A DNA stretch of 64,000 nt from positions 851,655 through 915,654 of the forward strand of contig OZ220707.1 of the NCBI GenBank assembly GCA_965116685.1, given 5' to 3'. The notes below the pieces were generated by a model. That model saw only the letters and a program-made list of their open reading frames with translations. It did no database searches and had not been told where the DNA came from. The DNA is from Rhodothermales bacterium. GTDB taxonomy: Bacteria; Bacteroidota; Rhodothermia; Rhodothermales; Bin80. A program made the translations under genes and the position numbers. Positions within the stretch are counted from its first letter, which is position 1; each line of letters begins with the position of its first letter. Shown piece after piece: positions 17,894 to 59,307 of this stretch.

Positions 17894-18593
17894 ATGGAAC
17901 CTTATCTGGACTTGACGCGACTCACCTTGGGATTGGGGGAGGACTGGACGATTGACAAGGCGCTTCTGGATGAGCAGATTCAGCGGATGGACATCTACAT
18001 ATCTCATTCGGGAGGTGCGTTGATTTGTCCCGAGACGAGCGAGACGGGGACGCTCTATGATCATGGAACGGAGCGGACATGACGGCACTTGGATTGCTAT
18101 GAATTCAAGTATTTTGTACATCGCCAGGTTCCCCGGATTCAGTCGTCTGCGGGCGTGAAGACGATCCAGACTCCCTGGCAACGGCGTCGAGTCGGTTTAC
18201 CAGTGTGTTTGAGTGCTGGACGATTCATTTACTGAAAGCAACCAAGAACCAGACGAAGACGGCCCAGCTGCTTCGTCGTAAGTTTGACACGGTCAACCGC
18301 ATCCTGCACCGCAGTGTATCGTGTGGGATGAAGCGCAGGCCGCTGGACGAGATTGCATATGTGAGTGTAGACGAGAAGGCATTTCAGCATGGACATCGCT
18401 ATGCAACGATTGTCAGTGATTCGAGGCGTGGGGTCGTGATTGATGTTGGGGAAGGCCGGGACAAAGCCAGTGCAAAAACTCTGTTAGGCCGCCTTCTGGT
18501 ACAGAAAAAGGGAACGGTCCAGACGATTACGACGGATATGTGGAGGGCCTACATTACCGCGATCCAGAAGCTGTTTCCCACGGCCATCCTGAT
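17894..18593 (+). pseudogene. ISL3 transposase, N-terminal and central part (degenerate)
   Basis: TGA at 18080-18082 lies where the ISL3 consensus has Trp (ERT-stop-RHLD). There is a frameshift before SRFTSVFECW. The DDE_Tnp_ISL3 core (VSVDEKAF...TTDMWRAYITAIQKLFPTAIL) ends abruptly at 18593. Confidence 0.8.
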
Positions 18594-18747
18594 ATCGCGG
18601 TAGGGACCCGGATTGCTCCCACAAGCGCTAACTTGTTTGATTAAGAAAATATTTTTCAATCTGAGGTTTTCTTTTACGGTTAGATCCTCAAGTCCATTCG
18701 AGATCATTTTCCAATCTCGAATCATGGTCTCCAGACCACATGAAGGC

Positions 18748-19923
18748 TCAATCGCCCGAGTTACTTGATTCAAGGCGAACTTGAAGTTTTTCCAAGGGCT
18801 CGTTTGGAATGCGGTAGCCCCAGGGGGAAAAAGTTCGTGCATGACGAACGATTTTTTCCGTGAGCAGTGCCACCAAGAACTTTCCGTAAAGCCAGGCCTT
18901 CGCACTCTCTTGGTCATATTTCGGTAAATGACCAAATTGAGACAATGATTTGAATCGTTTGAATACGAGTTCAACCTGCCACCTCAGGCGATACCAATCA
19001 AGCACCTGCGATGCAGAAAATTGATCTGCTGGAAATGTGGTAAATACAATGACATAGCGCGCAAAGCGTAGCGTTTGTTCCATGGGCTTTGTTCCATGGT
19101 TTTGGGCATCCTTGCGAATTTTCTTGCAGGCCTTCTGGGCCGCTTCCTCTGTTTTCCGAAGGACACAAACACGCCCCGGTACCGGAGGATCCGACCCGAC
19201 GTACACCTTCCATTCCCCAATTGCACCAATGCGGGTGATGGACTCCACCGCACGCAACAGATCAAAGGATGTGTCAGGCTTCGTATGGAAATGGAGCGTA
19301 CCCGTATTCACACGAACGGTGACATACCCACCAGATTTTGTCACGTATTGCACGCCGCTGGCCGTTGCATAGACACGGTCCGCCAGAATATAATCCCCAG
19401 AATGAACCGGAAATTGTTTGAATGATTCGCCGGTTCCCTTTCCCTTGGTTGGAGTAAGTTTGAAGAAATCGCACCCAAAGGAAGGCAGGGCTACGCTATA
19501 ATGTATGCGCCACTGCGACCCAGTTCGTCCAGGCTCGCAGACCACCGTGGCATCAAACGCACGTACTTGATGCTTCGTATCACCAGAGATCGTGCTCCCA
19601 TGTTCCTCAAATAGTGCCTTGCAGAGTGCAGAAAGCCAGTCCCGAGATTTGCGTAGACGTTTGAGCAGCGCTACATCCGATAGCTCGGCCAGATTTGCCT
19701 GACGAGCTCGTACCACGGTTTCACGTAGGGAATGCCCGCATCCCAAATGGATAAGCAGCGTTCGCAGAAGGGCCTCTGGAGACTTATCCTTACGCAGTCC
19801 GCGTAAGGCGCCCGTATCCGCTGCTAAATCCTTCCAGTTCTCGGGCAGAAACGAAAGCAAGACACCCCAGTCCTCACTAATCGGTGCCGTCGTAACGGTT
19901 CGCTTCATGAAAATTCCGATCAA
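18748..19923 (-). CDS. IS4-family DDE transposase
   Basis: Carries the IS4 Y-(2)-R-(3)-E-(6)-K signature YRLRWQVELVFKRFK. The ORF is uninterrupted. The probable ATG start is at 19908; the track start at 19923 is a TTG. Confidence 0.85.
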   Translation of the reverse strand: MIGIFMKRTVTTAPISEDWGVLLSFLPENWKDLAADTGALRGLRKDKSPEALLRTLLIHLGCGHSLRETVVRARQANLAELSDVALLKRLRKSRDWLSALCKALFEEHGSTISGDTKHQVRAFDATVVCEPGRTGSQWRIHYSVALPSFGCDFFKLTPTKGKGTGESFKQFPVHSGDYILADRVYATASGVQYVTKSGGYVTVRVNTGTLHFHTKPDTSFDLLRAVESITRIGAIGEWKVYVGSDPPVPGRVCVLRKTEEAAQKACKKIRKDAQNHGTKPMEQTLRFARYVIVFTTFPADQFSASQVLDWYRLRWQVELVFKRFKSLSQFGHLPKYDQESAKAWLYGKFLVALLTEKIVRHARTFSPWGYRIPNEPLEKLQVRLESSNSGD

Positions 19924-19927
19924 GTTC

Positions 19928-20025
19928 GAGGTTCTTGCAAAACTCTTCTACAATCCGAATAATATACCCGTAGACACTCTCAGAGCAATATTCGCCTCCA
20001 AATGAGAGAGTTTTGCAAGAGGCTC
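19928..20025. mobile_element. 98-bp MITE, copy 1, in the 5' leader of the IS4 transposase gene
   Basis: About 90% identical by eye to 59210-59307. Terminal inverted repeats are GAGGTTCTTGCAAAACTCT / AGAGTTTTGCAAGAGGCTC. Flanked by the direct repeat AGTTC. Confidence 0.8.
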
Positions 20026-20688
20026 AGTTCCTTTGATTTAGGGAAAGCTACAATAATTATTGATTGTAAACAAGTTAGCGCTTATGCGGATTGCTCCGGG
20101 CCCCCCGCACAGATCCGGACGTGCGCGTTAACGCATCCGGCTCCTCCCTCGGGTCGCACCGGCGTGCATAACGGCAGAATTGCCGTAGCCGATTGATCCC
20201 ATAAACTCACTGATCCATCTCTGTGTATGGCGTGAGCCCGGATCTCCCAGCTTCCCCTTGGGTGGGGACCTTCGCTCCAGCGACTCCGCAGGTCGCCCCT
20301 TGTTCGCCGCCTTCTTCACTACTATGTCCCCATCTGACTGCTCCATCCCGTGCATCGCAGGCTTCGGCGTCTTCCGCCTTCCCTGCGCGATCCCAACTCT
20401 GCGTTTAGGACAGGATAGAGCCCTCACAGGTCCCGACAAAATGCGTACATATGTCCCTGAGTTCTTAGACACCGTGGGCCTGTATGCCGCCTCGCCATGG
20501 CGGTGACATACATGTTGCCTTCGACCACTTGGACAGCCTCGGCGACCCAGACGATAACGATTTCGTTGCTCAATAGCTCCGGCCACACGCACCTCTACCG
20601 ACGCTTCGTCGTGACCCTCGCGGGGCACAACGCACGGCTCGAGGAAGTATGTGATTGGTTGCATCTTCATACTACGGGACTTGCACCC

Positions 20689-22572
20689 ATCGCGGTAGGG
20701 ACCCGAGTTTCCTCGGGCCCCCCGCACAGATCCGGACGTGCGCGTTAACGCATCCGGCTCCTCCCTTGGGTTACACTCGCGTGCTTGACGGAAAATCGTC
20801 TCGCCGGCCAGTCGTGTCGTATGTTCAGCTTCGGCCAATAGCGCTCAATGAGGATATCCAACTGCTCCCATGTGGTCCGATCCTTCTGGGATCGTCGACG
20901 TAGGATACACAGCCATACCCATTTCAAGCACTTAAAACATCTCCATAGGTACCGATAACTCCATGGTACGGCATAGTAATTCAGCCATCCATTAAGAACT
21001 TGGCCAAGCCATAGGCCCGTATCATGCACGCTTTCGTGCATCCGGCGCCATAGCTCCCTACGAATTCGTTTTATGAAGCGCACCATGCGCTTCGCGATTG
21101 GCTTACGGCCCAGCCCAAATGACCCCTTACGGGTTTTACGACAGTAATGTGTAAATCCCAGAAAGTCAAAGGTCTTCGGCTTGCCGTCTCCCCGTTTTCT
21201 ACGGTGCTCCATCGCGTTGCGACCAAATTCGATCAGTCGCGTTTTGTCTGGATGCAGACTCAATCCGAATTTCTCCAGTCGGGCCCGCAATGCACGTAGA
21301 AACTTCTCCGCCTCCTCCTTATACTTTCCACAAAATCGTCCGCATAACGAACGATATACGACTCTCCACCGATCTTGCGTGATTTGCGCTGGGACTCAAA
21401 CCATAAGTCCAGCACGTAATGAAGGTAGATGTTGGCCAGAATCGGAGAGATCACCGCGCCTTGCGGCGTGCCTCGCCTACTTTCCTGCCAGTTCCCATCC
21501 TCCATCACCCCCGCCTTCAGAAATTTTGTGATGAGTCGGAGCACCCGTTGATCTGCAATCCGGTGTTCCAGGAAGCGGAGTAACCACTCCTGATCCACCA
21601 TGTCAAAGAATTTCCGAATGTCCGCATCCACCACATAGTTGACCCTCCGGCGTTCGATCACATACGCGACGGCATCCAGTCCATCATGGGCACTGCGCCC
21701 CGGCCTGAATCCATAGCTGAACCCGCAGAACTCATTTTCATAAATGGGCTCTAAGATACATTTTACCATCGCGGTCTGGACGATCTTGTCCTCCAGCGCT
21801 GCGATCCCAAGCGGTCGTGTGCCTCCATCAGGCTTCGGTATATTCACCCGCCTGCTGGGGGTCGCTCGAAACGATCCACGGTGTACGCGTGTGCAGAGAT
21901 CCGCAAGGTTGCGGTCCAAGTCCACGCTATACTCCTCCCACGTCACGTTGTCCACCCCAGGGGACGCTTCTCGCTTTAATGCGAAAAACGCCGCCGTCAG
22001 TGATTCCACGCTGATGTGGTGCAAGAGCGTTGTAAACTTCGGGTTCCGTTGTACGACTTCCCGTATCCGCTCAATCCCCTGGTGCACACGCGCCCATTTC
22101 TGCGCATGGTGTGTGGTGGGATCTTGCGGATTCCCCTCGGGTAGAGGCCTTCGCTCCGACCGCTCCGCGGATGGCTCCTTGTTCGCGGTCTTCCTCACTA
22201 CTATGCCTCTATCTGACTTCTCCATCTCGTGCATCTTAGGCTTCGGCGTCTTCCGCCTTCTCTAAGCGGCCCCGTACGACTACAGGGCAAGATGGAGACC
22301 TCCCAGGTCCCGGCAAAGTGCGTACGTGCGTCCCTGAGTTCCTGGACACCGTGGGCCTGTAGATCCTCTCACCATAACGATGACCTACATGGTGCCTTCG
22401 ACCTGTAACACAGCCTCGACGACCCAGATAATGCATATTTCGTTGCTCAATAGCTCCGGCCACACGCACCGCTGCCGACACTTCATCGGGACCCTCACGG
22501 ATCACAACGCACGGCTCGCGGAAATATGTGTTTTGGTTAAACTTCATACTGCAGGACTTGCACCTGCTACAC
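20689..22572 (-). mobile_element. Group II intron copy A (likely class C-like, no En domain)
   Basis: On the minus strand the 5' end reads GUGUAGCAGGUGCAAGUCCUGC. DV is GAGCCGGAUGCGUUAACGCGCACGUCCGGAUC (20729-20760). DVI has a GAAA loop and a bulged A 8 nt from the 3' end, which reads ...CCGCGAU. Confidence 0.85.
20745..22234 (-). pseudogene. Group II intron reverse transcriptase/maturase, frameshifted after YADD (copy A)
   Basis: The 324-aa ORF holds RT blocks IPKPDGGTRPLGI, FRPGRSAHD, DADIRKFFD, GTPQGAVISPILANIYL and RYADDFV. The 181-aa ORF in another frame continues with ...LHPDKTRLIEF, FDFLGFTHY and the maturase motif LNGWLNYY. The shift is at about 21324-21334. Confidence 0.85.
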
Positions 22573-22595
22573 TTATGCCAGTTAGCCTGGCGTTC

Positions 22596-24479
22596 ATCGC
22601 GGTAGGGACCCGAGTTTCCTCGGGCCCCCCGCACAGATCCGGACGTGCGCGTTAACGCATCCGGCTCCTCCCTTGGGTTACACTCGCGTGCTTGACGGAA
22701 AATCGTCTCGCCGGCCAGTCGTGTCGTATGTTCAGCTTCGGCCAATAGCGCTCAATGAGGATATCCAACTGCTCCCATGTGGTCCGATCCTTCTGGGATC
22801 GTCGACGTAGGATACACAGCCATACCCATTTCAAGCACTTAAAACATCTCCATAGGTACCGATAACTCCATGGTACGGCATAGTAATTCAGCCATCCATT
22901 AAGAACTTGGCCAAGCCATAGGCCCGTATCATGCACGCTTTCGTGCATCCGGCGCCATAGCTCCCTACGAATTCGTTTTATGAAGCGCACCATGCGCTTC
23001 GCGATTGGCTTACGGCCCAGCCCAAATGACCCCTTACGGGTTTTACGACAGTAATGTGTAAATCCCAGAAAGTCAAAGGTCTTCGGCTTGCCGTCTCCCC
23101 GTTTTCTACGGTGCTCCATCGCGTTGCGACCAAATTCGATCAGTCGCGTTTTGTCTGGATGCAGACTCAATCCGAATTTCTCCAGTCGGGCCCGCAATGC
23201 ACGTAGAAACTTCTCCGCCTCCTCCTTATACTTTCCACAAAATCGTCCGCATAACGAACGATATACGACTCTCCACCGATCTTGCGTGATTTGCGCTGGG
23301 ACTCAAACCATAAGTCCAGCACGTAATGAAGGTAGATGTTGGCCAGAATCGGAGAGATCACCGCGCCTTGCGGCGTGCCTCGCCTACTTTCCTGCCAGTT
23401 CCCATCCTCCATCACCCCCGCCTTCAGAAATTTTGTGATGAGTCGGAGCACCCGTTGATCTGCAATCCGGTGTTCCAGGAAGCGGAGTAACCACTCCTGA
23501 TCCACCATGTCAAAGAATTTCCGAATGTCCGCATCCACCACATAGTTGACCCTCCGGCGTTCGATCACATACGCGACGGCATCCAGTCCATCATGGGCAC
23601 TGCGCCCCGGCCTGAATCCATAGCTGAACCCGCAGAACTCATTTTCATAAATGGGCTCTAAGATACATTTTACCATCGCGGTCTGGACGATCTTGTCCTC
23701 CAGCGCTGCGATCCCAAGCGGTCGTGTGCCTCCATCAGGCTTCGGTATATTCACCCGCCTGCTGGGGGTCGCTCGAAACGATCCACGGTGTACGCGTGTG
23801 CAGAGATCCGCAAGGTTGCGGTCCAAGTCCACGCTATACTCCTCCCACGTCACGTTGTCCACCCCAGGGGACGCTTCTCGCTTTAATGCGAAAAACGCCG
23901 CCGTCAGTGATTCCACGCTGATGTGGTGCAAGAGCGTTGTAAACTTCGGGTTCCGTTGTACGACTTCCCGTATCCGCTCAATCCCCTGGTGCACACGCGC
24001 CCATTTCTGCGCATGGTGTGTGGTGGGATCTTGCGGATTCCCCTCGGGTAGAGGCCTTCGCTCCGACCGCTCCGCGGATGGCTCCTTGTTCGCGGTCTTC
24101 CTCACTACTATGCCTCTATCTGACTTCTCCATCTCGTGCATCTTAGGCTTCGGCGTCTTCCGCCTTCTCTAAGCGGCCCCGTACGACTACAGGGCAAGAT
24201 GGAGACCTCCCAGGTCCCGGCAAAGTGCGTACGTGCGTCCCTGAGTTCCTGGACACCGTGGGCCTGTAGATCCTCTCACCATAACGATGACCTACATGGT
24301 GCCTTCGACCTGTAACACAGCCTCGACGACCCAGATAATGCATATTTCGTTGCTCAATAGCTCCGGCCACACGCACCGCTGCCGACACTTCATCGGGACC
24401 CTCACGGATCACAACGCACGGCTCGCGGAAATATGTGTTTTGGTTAAACTTCATACTGCAGGACTTGCACCTGCTACAC
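22596..24479 (-). mobile_element. Group II intron copy B
   Basis: Offset +1907 from copy A, with identical ORF translations. Confidence 0.85.
22652..24141 (-). pseudogene. Group II intron RT/maturase, same frameshift (copy B)
   Basis: The 324-aa and 181-aa translations are identical to copy A. Confidence 0.85.
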
Positions 24480-24502
24480 TTATGCCAGTTAGCCTGGCGT
24501 TC

Positions 24503-26386
24503 ATCGCGGTAGGGACCCGAGTTTCCTCGGGCCCCCCGCACAGATCCGGACGTGCGCGTTAACGCATCCGGCTCCTCCCTTGGGTTACACTCGCGTGCTT
24601 GACGGAAAATCGTCTCGCCGGCCAGTCGTGTCGTATGTTCAGCTTCGGCCAATAGCGCTCAATGAGGATATCCAACTGCTCCCATGTGGTCCGATCCTTC
24701 TGGGATCGTCGACGTAGGATACACAGCCATACCCATTTCAAGCACTTAAAACATCTCCATAGGTACCGATAACTCCATGGTACGGCATAGTAATTCAGCC
24801 ATCCATTAAGAACTTGGCCAAGCCATAGGCCCGTATCATGCACGCTTTCGTGCATCCGGCGCCATAGCTCCCTACGAATTCGTTTTATGAAGCGCACCAT
24901 GCGCTTCGCGATTGGCTTACGGCCCAGCCCAAATGACCCCTTACGGGTTTTACGACAGTAATGTGTAAATCCCAGAAAGTCAAAGGTCTTCGGCTTGCCG
25001 TCTCCCCGTTTTCTACGGTGCTCCATCGCGTTGCGACCAAATTCGATCAGTCGCGTTTTGTCTGGATGCAGACTCAATCCGAATTTCTCCAGTCGGGCCC
25101 GCAATGCACGTAGAAACTTCTCCGCCTCCTCCTTATACTTTCCACAAAATCGTCCGCATAACGAACGATATACGACTCTCCACCGATCTTGCGTGATTTG
25201 CGCTGGGACTCAAACCATAAGTCCAGCACGTAATGAAGGTAGATGTTGGCCAGAATCGGAGAGATCACCGCGCCTTGCGGCGTGCCTCGCCTACTTTCCT
25301 GCCAGTTCCCATCCTCCATCACCCCCGCCTTCAGAAATTTTGTGATGAGTCGGAGCACCCGTTGATCTGCAATCCGGTGTTCCAGGAAGCGGAGTAACCA
25401 CTCCTGATCCACCATGTCAAAGAATTTCCGAATGTCCGCATCCACCACATAGTTGACCCTCCGGCGTTCGATCACATACGCGACGGCATCCAGTCCATCA
25501 TGGGCACTGCGCCCCGGCCTGAATCCATAGCTGAACCCGCAGAACTCATTTTCATAAATGGGCTCTAAGATACATTTTACCATCGCGGTCTGGACGATCT
25601 TGTCCTCCAGCGCTGCGATCCCAAGCGGTCGTGTGCCTCCATCAGGCTTCGGTATATTCACCCGCCTGCTGGGGGTCGCTCGAAACGATCCACGGTGTAC
25701 GCGTGTGCAGAGATCCGCAAGGTTGCGGTCCAAGTCCACGCTATACTCCTCCCACGTCACGTTGTCCACCCCAGGGGACGCTTCTCGCTTTAATGCGAAA
25801 AACGCCGCCGTCAGTGATTCCACGCTGATGTGGTGCAAGAGCGTTGTAAACTTCGGGTTCCGTTGTACGACTTCCCGTATCCGCTCAATCCCCTGGTGCA
25901 CACGCGCCCATTTCTGCGCATGGTGTGTGGTGGGATCTTGCGGATTCCCCTCGGGTAGAGGCCTTCGCTCCGACCGCTCCGCGGATGGCTCCTTGTTCGC
26001 GGTCTTCCTCACTACTATGCCTCTATCTGACTTCTCCATCTCGTGCATCTTAGGCTTCGGCGTCTTCCGCCTTCTCTAAGCGGCCCCGTACGACTACAGG
26101 GCAAGATGGAGACCTCCCAGGTCCCGGCAAAGTGCGTACGTGCGTCCCTGAGTTCCTGGACACCGTGGGCCTGTAGATCCTCTCACCATAACGATGACCT
26201 ACATGGTGCCTTCGACCTGTAACACAGCCTCGACGACCCAGATAATGCATATTTCGTTGCTCAATAGCTCCGGCCACACGCACCGCTGCCGACACTTCAT
26301 CGGGACCCTCACGGATCACAACGCACGGCTCGCGGAAATATGTGTTTTGGTTAAACTTCATACTGCAGGACTTGCACCTGCTACAC
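24503..26386 (-). mobile_element. Group II intron copy C
   Basis: Offset +3814 from copy A, with identical ORF translations. Confidence 0.85.
24559..26048 (-). pseudogene. Group II intron RT/maturase, same frameshift (copy C)
   Basis: The 324-aa and 181-aa translations are identical to copy A. Confidence 0.85.
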
Positions 26387-26409
26387 TTATGCCAGTTAGC
26401 CTGGCGTTC

Positions 26410-28293
26410 ATCGCGGTAGGGACCCGAGTTTCCTCGGGCCCCCCGCACAGATCCGGACGTGCGCGTTAACGCATCCGGCTCCTCCCTTGGGTTACACTCG
26501 CGTGCTTGACGGAAAATCGTCTCGCCGGCCAGTCGTGTCGTATGTTCAGCTTCGGCCAATAGCGCTCAATGAGGATATCCAACTGCTCCCATGTGGTCCG
26601 ATCCTTCTGGGATCGTCGACGTAGGATACACAGCCATACCCATTTCAAGCACTTAAAACATCTCCATAGGTACCGATAACTCCATGGTACGGCATAGTAA
26701 TTCAGCCATCCATTAAGAACTTGGCCAAGCCATAGGCCCGTATCATGCACGCTTTCGTGCATCCGGCGCCATAGCTCCCTACGAATTCGTTTTATGAAGC
26801 GCACCATGCGCTTCGCGATTGGCTTACGGCCCAGCCCAAATGACCCCTTACGGGTTTTACGACAGTAATGTGTAAATCCCAGAAAGTCAAAGGTCTTCGG
26901 CTTGCCGTCTCCCCGTTTTCTACGGTGCTCCATCGCGTTGCGACCAAATTCGATCAGTCGCGTTTTGTCTGGATGCAGACTCAATCCGAATTTCTCCAGT
27001 CGGGCCCGCAATGCACGTAGAAACTTCTCCGCCTCCTCCTTATACTTTCCACAAAATCGTCCGCATAACGAACGATATACGACTCTCCACCGATCTTGCG
27101 TGATTTGCGCTGGGACTCAAACCATAAGTCCAGCACGTAATGAAGGTAGATGTTGGCCAGAATCGGAGAGATCACCGCGCCTTGCGGCGTGCCTCGCCTA
27201 CTTTCCTGCCAGTTCCCATCCTCCATCACCCCCGCCTTCAGAAATTTTGTGATGAGTCGGAGCACCCGTTGATCTGCAATCCGGTGTTCCAGGAAGCGGA
27301 GTAACCACTCCTGATCCACCATGTCAAAGAATTTCCGAATGTCCGCATCCACCACATAGTTGACCCTCCGGCGTTCGATCACATACGCGACGGCATCCAG
27401 TCCATCATGGGCACTGCGCCCCGGCCTGAATCCATAGCTGAACCCGCAGAACTCATTTTCATAAATGGGCTCTAAGATACATTTTACCATCGCGGTCTGG
27501 ACGATCTTGTCCTCCAGCGCTGCGATCCCAAGCGGTCGTGTGCCTCCATCAGGCTTCGGTATATTCACCCGCCTGCTGGGGGTCGCTCGAAACGATCCAC
27601 GGTGTACGCGTGTGCAGAGATCCGCAAGGTTGCGGTCCAAGTCCACGCTATACTCCTCCCACGTCACGTTGTCCACCCCAGGGGACGCTTCTCGCTTTAA
27701 TGCGAAAAACGCCGCCGTCAGTGATTCCACGCTGATGTGGTGCAAGAGCGTTGTAAACTTCGGGTTCCGTTGTACGACTTCCCGTATCCGCTCAATCCCC
27801 TGGTGCACACGCGCCCATTTCTGCGCATGGTGTGTGGTGGGATCTTGCGGATTCCCCTCGGGTAGAGGCCTTCGCTCCGACCGCTCCGCGGATGGCTCCT
27901 TGTTCGCGGTCTTCCTCACTACTATGCCTCTATCTGACTTCTCCATCTCGTGCATCTTAGGCTTCGGCGTCTTCCGCCTTCTCTAAGCGGCCCCGTACGA
28001 CTACAGGGCAAGATGGAGACCTCCCAGGTCCCGGCAAAGTGCGTACGTGCGTCCCTGAGTTCCTGGACACCGTGGGCCTGTAGATCCTCTCACCATAACG
28101 ATGACCTACATGGTGCCTTCGACCTGTAACACAGCCTCGACGACCCAGATAATGCATATTTCGTTGCTCAATAGCTCCGGCCACACGCACCGCTGCCGAC
28201 ACTTCATCGGGACCCTCACGGATCACAACGCACGGCTCGCGGAAATATGTGTTTTGGTTAAACTTCATACTGCAGGACTTGCACCTGCTACAC
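26410..28293 (-). mobile_element. Group II intron copy D
   Basis: Offset +5721 from copy A, with identical ORF translations. Confidence 0.85.
26466..27955 (-). pseudogene. Group II intron RT/maturase, same frameshift (copy D)
   Basis: The 324-aa and 181-aa translations are identical to copy A. Confidence 0.85.
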
Positions 28294-28316
28294 TTATGCC
28301 AGTTAGCCTGGCGTTC

Positions 28317-30200
28317 ATCGCGGTAGGGACCCGAGTTTCCTCGGGCCCCCCGCACAGATCCGGACGTGCGCGTTAACGCATCCGGCTCCTCCCTTGGGTT
28401 ACACTCGCGTGCTTGACGGAAAATCGTCTCGCCGGCCAGTCGTGTCGTATGTTCAGCTTCGGCCAATAGCGCTCAATGAGGATATCCAACTGCTCCCATG
28501 TGGTCCGATCCTTCTGGGATCGTCGACGTAGGATACACAGCCATACCCATTTCAAGCACTTAAAACATCTCCATAGGTACCGATAACTCCATGGTACGGC
28601 ATAGTAATTCAGCCATCCATTAAGAACTTGGCCAAGCCATAGGCCCGTATCATGCACGCTTTCGTGCATCCGGCGCCATAGCTCCCTACGAATTCGTTTT
28701 ATGAAGCGCACCATGCGCTTCGCGATTGGCTTACGGCCCAGCCCAAATGACCCCTTACGGGTTTTACGACAGTAATGTGTAAATCCCAGAAAGTCAAAGG
28801 TCTTCGGCTTGCCGTCTCCCCGTTTTCTACGGTGCTCCATCGCGTTGCGACCAAATTCGATCAGTCGCGTTTTGTCTGGATGCAGACTCAATCCGAATTT
28901 CTCCAGTCGGGCCCGCAATGCACGTAGAAACTTCTCCGCCTCCTCCTTATACTTTCCACAAAATCGTCCGCATAACGAACGATATACGACTCTCCACCGA
29001 TCTTGCGTGATTTGCGCTGGGACTCAAACCATAAGTCCAGCACGTAATGAAGGTAGATGTTGGCCAGAATCGGAGAGATCACCGCGCCTTGCGGCGTGCC
29101 TCGCCTACTTTCCTGCCAGTTCCCATCCTCCATCACCCCCGCCTTCAGAAATTTTGTGATGAGTCGGAGCACCCGTTGATCTGCAATCCGGTGTTCCAGG
29201 AAGCGGAGTAACCACTCCTGATCCACCATGTCAAAGAATTTCCGAATGTCCGCATCCACCACATAGTTGACCCTCCGGCGTTCGATCACATACGCGACGG
29301 CATCCAGTCCATCATGGGCACTGCGCCCCGGCCTGAATCCATAGCTGAACCCGCAGAACTCATTTTCATAAATGGGCTCTAAGATACATTTTACCATCGC
29401 GGTCTGGACGATCTTGTCCTCCAGCGCTGCGATCCCAAGCGGTCGTGTGCCTCCATCAGGCTTCGGTATATTCACCCGCCTGCTGGGGGTCGCTCGAAAC
29501 GATCCACGGTGTACGCGTGTGCAGAGATCCGCAAGGTTGCGGTCCAAGTCCACGCTATACTCCTCCCACGTCACGTTGTCCACCCCAGGGGACGCTTCTC
29601 GCTTTAATGCGAAAAACGCCGCCGTCAGTGATTCCACGCTGATGTGGTGCAAGAGCGTTGTAAACTTCGGGTTCCGTTGTACGACTTCCCGTATCCGCTC
29701 AATCCCCTGGTGCACACGCGCCCATTTCTGCGCATGGTGTGTGGTGGGATCTTGCGGATTCCCCTCGGGTAGAGGCCTTCGCTCCGACCGCTCCGCGGAT
29801 GGCTCCTTGTTCGCGGTCTTCCTCACTACTATGCCTCTATCTGACTTCTCCATCTCGTGCATCTTAGGCTTCGGCGTCTTCCGCCTTCTCTAGGCGGCCC
29901 CGTACGACTACAGGGCAAGATGGAGACCTCCCAGGTCCCGGCAAAGTGCGTACGTGCGTCCCTGAGTTCCTGGACACCGTGGGCCTGTAGATCCTCTCAC
30001 CATAACGATGACCTACATGGTGCCTTCGACCTGTAACACAGCCTCGACGACCCAGATAATGCATATTTCGTTGCTCAATAGCTCCGGCCACACGCACCGC
30101 TGCCGACACTTCATCGGGACCCTCACGGATCACAACGCACGGCTCGCGGAAATATGTGTTTTGGTTAAACTTCATACTGCAGGACTTGCACCTGCTACAC
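28317..30200 (-). mobile_element. Group II intron copy E (5'-most copy in intron orientation)
   Basis: Offset +7628 from copy A. Carries a single observed substitution at 29893. Confidence 0.85.
28373..29862 (-). pseudogene. Group II intron RT/maturase, same frameshift (copy E)
   Basis: The 324-aa and 181-aa translations are identical to copy A. Confidence 0.85.
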
Positions 30201-30223
30201 TTATGCCAGTTAGCCTGGCGTTC

Positions 30224-30252
30224 GTTACATTTTGCCAGTTAGCCTGGCGCTC
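30224..30252 (-). repeat. Orphan, slightly diverged copy of the intron leader hairpin (no intron attached)
   Basis: The minus strand reads GAGCGCCAGGCUAACUGGCAAAAUGUAAC. The leader in each unit reads GAACGCCAGGCUAACUGGCAUAA followed by GUGUAGC. The two share an identical 17-nt core. Confidence 0.7.
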
Positions 30253-30535
30253 CCAAGAGTTATTCCCCAAGGCCCGCCTGATCCACGATCGTTTTCATTT
30301 GATCCAGTACCTCAACAAAGGGATTGATCCGGTTCGCCGCAGGGAAGTGAAACAGCATGAGGAACTCAAACCCAGTCGTTATGCGATCTTGAAAAACGAA
30401 CCGTATCGAACGCAAACGCAAGACGAGATCTTCAACGTCATCCAGGAAGCCAACTTGCAGGTCAGCGTTGCCTGGCGGCTGCGAGAGGAATTCAAGGCGA
30501 TCTTCCGATGCGACTCATGGTCGGATGCAAAGCAA
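30253..30535 (+). pseudogene. ISL3 transposase, central fragment
   Basis: Translation QELFPKARLIHDRFHLIQYLNKGIDPVRRREV...FRCDSWSDAKQ matches the DDE_Tnp_ISL3 region. It ends at the IS1634-like insertion. Confidence 0.8.
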
Positions 30536-58315: not shown

Positions 58316-59287
58316 ATGAACTTTCAACAGCCAAAACCAGACTCAAAAAAATATTCAGACCTCATTAACGAGATTCAGAAAGGCGTAATCAAAATCCCCA
58401 AGTTTCAACGCGAGTTTGTCTGGAGTATAGATAAGACAGCCAAGCTACTGGACAGCATTCTGAAAGGATATCCGATTGGTACATTTATTTTTTGGCAAAC
58501 AGATGAACGAATTAATGACATTAAGAACGTTGGGAACTTGGAGATTCCCGATACGCCGGAAGGAAACCAAGTTCAGTATGTATTGGACGGACAACAACGT
58601 ATTACCTCCCTTTTTGCTGCTTACCTTGGTGCTCGGATTCAGAAGACGGGCGAAAAGACGATAACGGACTATAACAAGATTTTTGTCAATCTCGACAAAG
58701 ATATAAGCGAAAATGACGGCCAGGTAATTACCGCCGAAACCACGGGGGAGAAAAATATATCGCTATCTGAAGTCCTGAACTTTAACTATGCCAAAGCAAA
58801 AGAACTTTCCGATGAATTCAGTGACGACGAATTAGATACTATCAATGCATATTCAACGGCGTTTAAGACGTATGAATTCTCAACTGTAGTTCTTAGAAAG
58901 GAAGATATTGACTCGGCAATCGAAGTTTTCACTCGTATTAACACAAGCGGGCAAACACTTACATTGTTTGAAATCGTGTCTGCCAAAACCTATGATGAAG
59001 AGCAAGGGTTCGATATGCAGGCGAAGTGGGAAGACTTTATAAAAGAACTTAAGGATATTCGGTATGAAGGTATATCGAGCACTGTAATTCTCAGCCTGCT
59101 TTCTCTTGTTCTAAGCCGAACTAAAGAATGCAAACGCAAGACCATACTGGCTTTGGATAAGCAAGCGATAATAAATAATTGGGATGCGGCAATATCTGCC
59201 TTAAAGGATGAGGTTCTTGCAAAACTCTTCTACAATCCACATTCTATGCCCGTAGACACCCTCAGAGCAATATTTTCCTCCAAATGA
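58316..59287 (+). CDS. GmrSD-like protein, N-terminal DUF262 (ParB-like NTPase) fragment, terminated by a stop inside an inserted MITE
   Basis: DUF262 motifs IKIPKFQREFVWS and LDGQQRITSL. The last 26 codons and the stop come from the 98-bp insert. Confidence 0.75.
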   Translation: MNFQQPKPDSKKYSDLINEIQKGVIKIPKFQREFVWSIDKTAKLLDSILKGYPIGTFIFWQTDERINDIKNVGNLEIPDTPEGNQVQYVLDGQQRITSLFAAYLGARIQKTGEKTITDYNKIFVNLDKDISENDGQVITAETTGEKNISLSEVLNFNYAKAKELSDEFSDDELDTINAYSTAFKTYEFSTVVLRKEDIDSAIEVFTRINTSGQTLTLFEIVSAKTYDEEQGFDMQAKWEDFIKELKDIRYEGISSTVILSLLSLVLSRTKECKRKTILALDKQAIINNWDAAISALKDEVLAKLFYNPHSMPVDTLRAIFSSK

Positions 59288-59307
59288 GAGGGTTTTGCAA
59301 CAGGTTC
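59210..59307. mobile_element. 98-bp MITE, copy 2, inserted in the GmrSD-like gene
   Basis: Same element as 19928-20025. Flanked by the 4-bp direct repeat GGAT (59206-59209 and 59308-59311). Insert plus duplication is 102 bp, so the frame is preserved but a TGA is introduced at 59285-59287. Confidence 0.8.

Follow-up and report, generated by a model that had tools for sequence, protein, structure and literature searches.

The 64,000-nucleotide (nt) stretch analyzed here, referred to as the window (contig OZ220707.1 of a Rhodothermales bacterium, positions 851,655 to 915,654 of the forward strand), carries on its minus strand a diverged group II intron that in all likelihood represents a genuine non-autonomous family, devoid of the usual open reading frame (ORF), and that harbors an array of full-size introns nested inside it. 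The ORF-less intron, named V, is 646 nt long. When the reconstructed variant was used in a BLAST search of the whole genome, a single contig of 3,755,968 bp (3.76 Mb), 13 copies with 99.3 to 99.8% identity were found. The full-size introns of the array were named type A, and a third subfamily, B, was present in six copies (∼82% identical) starting with the canonical GUGCGCCAGGCUAACUGG. Overall, the genome holds about 40 introns of these three subfamilies, with re-targeted guide sequences. What a sequence-only reading of the window had presented as a single sixth variant is thus a 13-copy family, with members in other species as well.

Six domain I matches to group II introns were obtained with Rfam on the minus strand of the window. 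Five of them were regularly spaced at 1907 nt and scored 148 bits each, while the sixth, diverged match (RF02005, positions 20460 to 20683) scored 163 bits. This is in agreement with the earlier proposal of a diverged ORF-less intron retaining domains I to III (D1 to D3), V (DV), and VI (DVI), and the proposed loss of about 1.27 kb of ORF also held, given the length of 646 nt for V versus 1914 to 1919 nt for the ORF-bearing introns. The number of reverse transcriptase (RT) codons kept, previously put at about 45, had to be raised to approximately 55 to 60; this N-terminal piece runs in frame into the original stop codon, yielding a remnant of 75 amino acids (aa).

The six stand-alone V copies begin CUUGG/GAGCGCCAGGCUAACUGGCAAAAUGUAAC-GGGUGCAAGUCCC... 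(the slash marks the splice junction), so that V starts with GAGCGCCAGG..., 29 nt upstream of GGGUGCAAG. The remaining seven copies, including that of the window, show the same 29 nt, then one to five A introns, and then V from GGGUGCAAG onward. In the window (all intron features on the minus strand), nt 1 to 29 of V lie at 30224 to 30252, are identical to those of the six stand-alone copies, and end with UGUAAC; they are followed by five head-to-tail type A introns at 20689 to 30223 (5 × 1907 nt, GAACGCC...CCGCGAU). V then resumes at 20688 and runs to 20087 (nt 30 to 631: the rest of D1, D2, D3, the remnant of domain IV, DV at 20112 to 20143, and the 5′ half of DVI, as delimited with RF02005 and by alignment to A and B). 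After an insertion sequence (IS) it continues from 18608 to 18594 (nt 632 to 646, the 3′ strand of DVI, placed by the RF00029 alignment of a stand-alone copy), finishing in ...CCCUACCGCGAU with the terminal CCGCGAU. Once the five A units and the IS with one of its two duplicated target copies are taken out, a contiguous V of 646 nt is left that differs from the family consensus by one base, the arrangement expected of a twintron. The coordinates first given for the variant therefore missed the 29 nt located beyond the array, and its 5′ end does not lack the leader, as had been stated: the leader is the 23-nt stretch with which each intron of the clade begins and is contained in the 29 nt at 30252 to 30224. 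Three readings that would place this 23-nt hairpin outside the intron, namely, a piece of 5′ exon, a class C-type terminator target, and a B.c.I4-like 3′ extension ("domain VII"), were rejected because the B introns begin GUGCGCCAGGCUAACUGG at that point and because the pairing of exon-binding site 1 (EBS1) with intron-binding site 1 (IBS1) puts the splice site before the hairpin.

The remnant ORF of V remains open for 75 aa in the window (20128 to 20355, minus strand), starting at the RT initiation codon and ending at the original stop, located in the DV loop, and it is likewise open in the V-like copy of a sister species (G003). A functional remnant peptide was considered and discarded, the frame being broken in the 78 to 80%-identical ORF-less relatives of genomes G011 and G004; the remnant is probably not under selection. 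One V copy (genome positions 2,496,461 to 2,496,497) contains 8 additional A in its A-run (GGCAAAAAAAAAAAATGTAAC), just before the point at which A introns insert.

The predicted RNA of V was well preserved. A stand-alone copy matched RF02005 over its full length with 165 bits, above the ORF-containing A copies (cut-off, 49), and also matched the DV-DVI model RF00029 over its full length, with the alignment ending exactly on the terminal AU. In a 29-sequence alifold alignment, V kept 110 of the 113 consensus pairs of D1 to D3, compared with 110 for B and 109 for A, and the differences between V and B in this region comprised 6 compensatory, 10 one-sided, and 2 disruptive changes. V is thus no random deletion derivative with disrupted helices. 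As for DVI, the stem reads CCCGGA-GCAA-UCCGGG in V and CCCGAG-GAAA-CUCGGG in the array, and the covariation first noticed between these two stems became stronger, instead of vanishing, when more copies were compared. Thus, 18 distinct DV-DVI sequences taken from the present genome and its relatives had 98.5% of their cells paired (100% in DV and 97% in DVI), with 8 pairs changed on both sides, while slid controls gave only 21 to 48% pairing. The three distal DVI pairs showed three to four double changes each and not a single unpaired cell.

DV (GAGCCGGAUGCGU-UAAC-...) has the AGC triad and a 2-nt AC bulge, and the bulged branch-point A, at 18601 in the window, is located 7 nt from the intron end, within the 7 to 8 nt expected. 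Moreover, the G-to-A change at nt 3 in introns starting with GAACG or GUACG is accompanied without exception by a C-to-U change in the GAAGCG loop (column 119); judged by this covariation, the two positions are the expected epsilon-epsilon′ pair, changed from G-C to A-U. The nearest solved relatives of the intron RT are of IIC type. A literature search on the class behind the Rfam D1D4-6 models and on introns in Rhodothermales returned nothing useful.

The guide sequences of the different subfamilies were in agreement with their targets. EBS1 occupies the terminal loop found at the EBS1 position of the Rfam model, varies by subfamily, and matches the 5′ exon each time, while EBS3, a single column in GGUGUC-N-AAGAAC, matches the base with which the 3′ exon starts. 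Thus, V combines EBS1 CCAAG (20528 to 20532 in the window) with IBS1 CUUGG (30253 to 30257), and EBS3 U (20467) with A as the first 3′-exon base (IBS3, 18593). Type A carries EBS1 GUUACA for IBS1 UGUAAC and EBS3 C for G, and type B carries EBS1 CGUCCC for IBS1 GGGGCG and EBS3 A for U. The V-like elements of G011 and G004 present a fourth state, with EBS1 CCUGAU for IBS1 AUCAGG and EBS3 G for C, which brings to four the number of guide/target states that covary between subfamilies and species. Directly ahead of V, CUUGG or a sequence close to it was found in all 12 copies in which the site could be read, and IBS3 is A in 11 of the 13.

The same rules account for the position of the array. The A introns sit between nt 29 and 30 of V, at UGUAAC/G (V nt 24 to 30), which constitutes a perfect target for the EBS1 and EBS3 of type A, and the arrangement V(1-29)-[A]n-V(30-646) occurs at seven loci, with n ranging from 1 to 5. 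Of the 21 A copies in the genome, 19 lie inside V (in 7 of the 13 V copies); the two that stand alone have an altered EBS1, GAUACU, that fits their own exons, AGUAUU. Each A intron begins with G, and its insertion would thus restore UGUAAC/G, allowing further copies to enter the same junction. The units of the window array are identical except for one base in the 5′-most unit (the one nearest 30223), whereas at other loci A variants of different lengths (1907, 1913, 1914, and 1920 nt) are found together in arrays of 3, 4, and 3+1 units; separate insertions are therefore favored over local duplication alone. The array was missed by Tandem Repeats Finder, as its period exceeds 500. Taken together, the junctions indicate that the array is nested inside V by retrohoming and is not fused to it.

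Evidence for mobility came from the surroundings of the 13 V copies, which have 13 different flanks, base-precise ends, and no target duplication. Empty sites could be read from paralogues of three host sequences, ...CCUGG/AAGCAGG and ...CACCUGG/AACAAAUCC among them. At two homologous host sites the flanks were only 72 to 76% identical while the V copies exceeded 99% identity, which argues for independent recent insertions. The position of dnaA (1.955 Mb) coincides with the minimum of the cumulative GC skew, and with respect to it the sense strand of V is on the lagging-strand template in all 13 copies (two-sided binomial P value of about 2e-4). Introns with an RT devoid of an endonuclease domain are expected to show such a bias (PMC4424553), and no recognizable endonuclease domain was detected in the intact A and B proteins (497 to 500 aa). 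From these features, the V family is judged to be mobile now or to have been so recently, the window copy being inactive, and its mobilization by an RT acting in trans is the best reading of the data.

Under this model, V would have arisen once, by an in-frame deletion of about 1.27 kb in the RT gene, and would then have spread as a family. The RT/maturase of a related A or B intron in the same genome would splice V, and the resulting lariat would reverse-splice into single-stranded DNA at replication forks, guided by the pairing of EBS1 CCAAG with CUUGG and of EBS3 U with A. Given an RT with no endonuclease domain, complementary DNA (cDNA) synthesis would be primed by nascent lagging-strand DNA. 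In the window, V would have inserted antisense into a transposase gene of the ISL3 family; type A introns would then have homed repeatedly into the V DNA after nt 29, with the new copies stacking at the 5′ side to give the head-to-tail array of five, and finally an IS4-family element with a preference for short GC-clamped palindromes would have hit the DVI stem-loop.

Several observations weigh against this reading and have to be set beside its rivals. As regards the junction, the sequence-only reading had assumed that the variant was truncated at its 5′ end and that illegitimate recombination at a shared GCGAU had attached it to the array's 3′ end. The junction does read ...CCGCGAU/GGGUGCAAG, and a GUGCGAU start would overlap there; however, no stand-alone V copy has GCGAU before GGGUG, the 29 nt supposedly missing were found directly upstream of the array, and the same junction, fitting the EBS1 and EBS3 of type A, recurs at seven independent loci, all of which makes such a fusion hardly credible. 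Another explanation would be that the array and its junction are an artefact of long-read metagenome assembly, or that the array grew solely by unequal crossing-over with no repeated homing. In its favor, four of the five A copies of the window are 100% identical, and the genome is apparently metagenome assembled. The mixture of A variants in other arrays is not what local duplication or a collapse/expansion artefact would produce, the one-base difference lies in the 5′-most unit, in line with the most recent insertion being the one on the 5′ side, and tandem re-integration has been demonstrated experimentally (PMC12584367). We therefore regard this second explanation as very unlikely, although unequal crossing-over may have added some of the four identical units of the window.

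As regards mobility, V might be an immobile deletion relic that spread by DNA duplication or recombination, for instance by hitchhiking in IS elements, and not by retrohoming. Several V copies do lie inside repeated elements (ISL3 and another repeated gene family), and recombination between copies is evident in the chimeric ISL3 flanks of the window and in a chimeric target duplication at 3.419 Mb. The 5′ end of V is also non-canonical: it starts with GAGCG in place of the near-universal GUGYG. The introns do end in AU, in keeping with the consensus GUGYG...AY, but at the 5′ end only B (GUGCG) conforms to it, A starting with GAACG. The U at nt 2 is replaced by A in V, in A, and in several multi-copy relatives, and a search for a compensating change found no covarying partner for this substitution. 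In addition, the DV triad of all three subfamilies has G-A instead of the usual G-U, and the RF00029 score, 38.5 bits, falls just below the gathering cut-off of 40. The catalytic competence of V would thus have to be deduced from its 13 copies and from the GAGCG ends of related multi-copy introns.

A relic carried along passively is nonetheless difficult to reconcile with 13 distinct flanks bounded to the base, with V copies more than 99% identical at homologous host sites that share only 72 to 84% identity, with the match of the sites to the guide at IBS1 and IBS3, with the 13/13 strand bias, or with the ORF-less relatives of other species, in which EBS1 and EBS3 have changed together with their targets. 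We consider it distinctly improbable, and retain mobilization of V in trans as the preferred reading.

The host site itself also speaks against a simple series of insertions. V lies antisense in the ISL3 transposase gene, and the two ISL3 flanks (window 17900 to 18593 and 30253 to 30517) show a 30-nt overlap. The boundary of the 5′ exon is site 2 (...AACUCUUGG/), and this exon is 96.8% identical to the V-bearing ISL3 at 2.35 Mb, while the 3′ exon begins at site 1 (...GUGG/AUCAGG), 30 nt before site 2, and is only 80% identical to that same element. Compared with the same ISL3 paralogues, identity ranged from 85.6 to 96.8% on the 5′-exon side and from 76.8 to 80% on the 3′-exon side. The overlap implies that the locus was also reshaped by recombination, and the simplest reading would be a recombinant of two V-bearing ISL3 copies whose V sites were 30 nt apart.

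The neighboring A introns had been put forward as potential helper copies for V. In all five of them, however, a 7-nt deletion (TATGTTTTC to AA) was found right after YADDFV, at window positions 21324 to 21346 and at the same place in each unit, so that the RT gene is frameshifted before the last RT motifs and the maturase domain. None of the A neighbors in the window can therefore be a helper of V. Genome-wide, the deletion affects 14 of the 21 A copies, leaving intact RT genes in 7 of 21 A copies (498 to 500 aa) and in all six B copies (497 aa); the intact A and B proteins match TIGR04416 with 371 bits. These seven A and six B copies, located elsewhere in the genome, are the candidate drivers of V. 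Concerning the affinity of V to either type, its D1 is nearer to B, with 88% identity in the first 299 nt, the value for A being 82%, and the DIVa region around the start codon, which V has kept, looks nearer to A by eye in the alignment. Defective A introns occur at several loci, the 1907-nt form at three and the 1913-nt form at four, and full-length introns with a defective RT have accordingly spread too.

Tentatively, V and A may be regarded as a mutually dependent pair of selfish introns, a possibility to which we give less than even weight. If it were true, V would need the RT of A (or B) to move, and the only regular homing site of A would be the 7-nt site in V; each new V copy would offer A a place to insert without harm, often more than once. 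Together with nesting in the reverse direction and with two ISs that target intron hairpins, the outcome would be a self-expanding, multi-layer nest of mobile elements.

The element inserted in DVI of the window copy (18620 to 20086, 1467 bp) encodes a 391-aa transposase (18748 to 19923, minus strand). Its assignment to the IS4 family and its position in DVI agreed with the sequence-only reading, which had set its end at 20087 and its duplication at 10 bp; the duplication is in fact of 11 bp, with a first copy at 20087 to 20097 and a second at 18609 to 18619 (GGAGCAATCCG on the intron strand, as read directly in the window and checked against four other insertions). The transposase matched NCBIfam transpos_IS4_1 with 143 bits (cut-off, 115) and Pfam DDE_Tnp_1, and the ends, CA(C/T)AAGCGCTAACTTGTTTG, form 20-bp terminal inverted repeats that match at 19 of 20 positions. 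All five copies of this IS in the genome occupy the same position of the DVI hairpin, with an 11-bp duplication in every case, one of them chimeric. Three are in V in one orientation, that of the window is in the opposite one, and the fifth, in a B-type 3′ fragment, has another 11-mer, AGGGAAACCUG. The chimeric case, in V at 3.419 Mb, has the B-type 11-mer (AGGGAAACCTG) on the left (3,419,159 to 3,419,169) and the V-type one (GGAGCAATCCG) on the right (3,420,535 to 3,420,545), which points to an exchange, by recombination or gene conversion, between IS copies residing in different introns.

A specificity of this IS for introns in general was rejected, since related copies in other species are found in other short GC-clamped palindromes. 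The DVI stem-loop can thus be viewed as a well-fitting and abundant target, not an exclusive one. The window copy of V has its ribozyme cut off by the IS from the branch-point A and 3′ splice site, and this split, added to the 9.5-kb array in domain I, implies that the copy is dead.

Two further observations concern the IS elements. A repeat of approximately 99 nt was present in the window IS (∼19928 to 20026) and in the identical IS at genome position 2,045,226, and absent from the other three copies; it was also found at window positions 59210 to 59307 and at about 25 other sites of the genome, and looks like a miniature mobile repeat. Besides, a second IS (four copies of 2.63 kb, with a 762-aa transposase, ends CTGCCTTGTAC, and an 8-bp duplication) was found in one A copy and one V copy, both outside the window (genome positions 3,652,604 to 3,655,232 and 2,351,871 to 2,354,498), inserted in each at an identical point in the loop of the intron 5′ hairpin (GGCTAACT).

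Relatives of V were also found in seven other species of the genus. A 100-nt probe spanning the deletion junction gave full-length matches in seven other genomes, with 74 to 94% identity, and in one of these genomes (G005) the ORF-less copies, about 646 nt long, number at least 8. Many copies thus share one ORF-deletion break-point. In G003 the nesting is reversed (contig CBDBMQ010000024, positions 289 to 2846, locus L025): a 93%-identical V-like intron with a GUGCG 5′ end lies inside an A-like RT gene, at nt 843/846 of A, in the target CUUGG/A. The A copies of the present genome read CUUAG at the corresponding site. Judging from these comparisons, the ORF-less lineage is old and has changed targets on more than one occasion, and V and A are each found nested in the other.

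For annotation purposes, the region from 18.6 to 30.3 kb of the window is best described as a single composite, lying in a dead ISL3 element and made up of mobile DNA units nested in one another, in which the V copy has no function of its own. The wider interest lies in the genus as an independent natural system, with an ORF-less lineage across species, two-way nesting, and stacks of up to five introns, and in the GAGCG and GAACG 5′ ends, which, to judge from the copy numbers, evidently still work. ORF-less group II introns that are still mobile are rare in bacteria (PMC4424553), and Thermosynechococcus elongatus is the one well-studied case, used as a model for the possible multiplication of introns in early eukaryotes.

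In T. elongatus, ORF-less introns are mobilized in trans, form twintrons, and insert into IS elements; a single ORF deletion was followed by proliferation, diverged EBS families arose, and other introns and ISs are preferred as sites (PMC2882425). V resembles the TeI3 introns of that organism (Mohr, Ghanem & Lambowitz 2010, PMC2882425) in having one ancestral ORF deletion with shared break-points (17 copies there and 13 here), families with diverged EBS, helper RTs from related introns (candidates in the present case), one intron hit by an IS, and introns that make up about 1.3 to 1.6% of the genome. Unlike the TeI3/TeI4 twintrons, here an ORF-bearing intron lies in an ORF-less one, and the insertion is in the 5′ strand of domain I (nt 29/30) and not in domain IV, and is repeated, with arrays of up to five; the direction seen in T. 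elongatus, an ORF-less intron inside an RT ORF, occurs in the sister species G003. Two-thirds of the A copies having a frameshifted RT, the GAGCG and GAACG 5′ ends, and the IS hot spot in DVI are further differences, as are the phylum of the host (Rhodothermales here) and the fact that the present system is known from its sequence alone.

The closest counterpart of the array is the IIB1 intron EcKTE56.groEL of Escherichia coli (Gomes et al. 2025, PMC12584367), in which the same 5′-exon junction is reused to give exact head-to-tail copies, with EBS3 pairing with the first G of the resident intron. There, two copies were obtained in over-expression assays, with a U-G wobble at EBS3, whereas here natural arrays of up to five units are found, with a Watson-Crick C-G pair at EBS3 and a target inside another intron. 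The nests of the archaeon Methanosarcina acetivorans, as cited in PMC2882425 and PMC4424553, are similar in that related introns serve as homing sites for ORF-less and RT-encoding introns, with up to five introns per nest and no coding exons around; those nests are of the intron-within-intron-within-intron type at ORF sites, and not tandem stacks at one junction. For its part, the IS of the window shares with the IS4 family the DDE transposase, inverted repeats of about 20 bp starting with CA, an 11-bp duplication, and a marked target preference, and differs from other members in that all five copies occupy one DVI position, in both orientations and in two intron subfamilies. Thus, the principles are all known from T. 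elongatus, and it is in the direction of nesting, the stacks of five, the RT-defective A introns, the 5′ termini, and the DVI hot spot that the present system differs.

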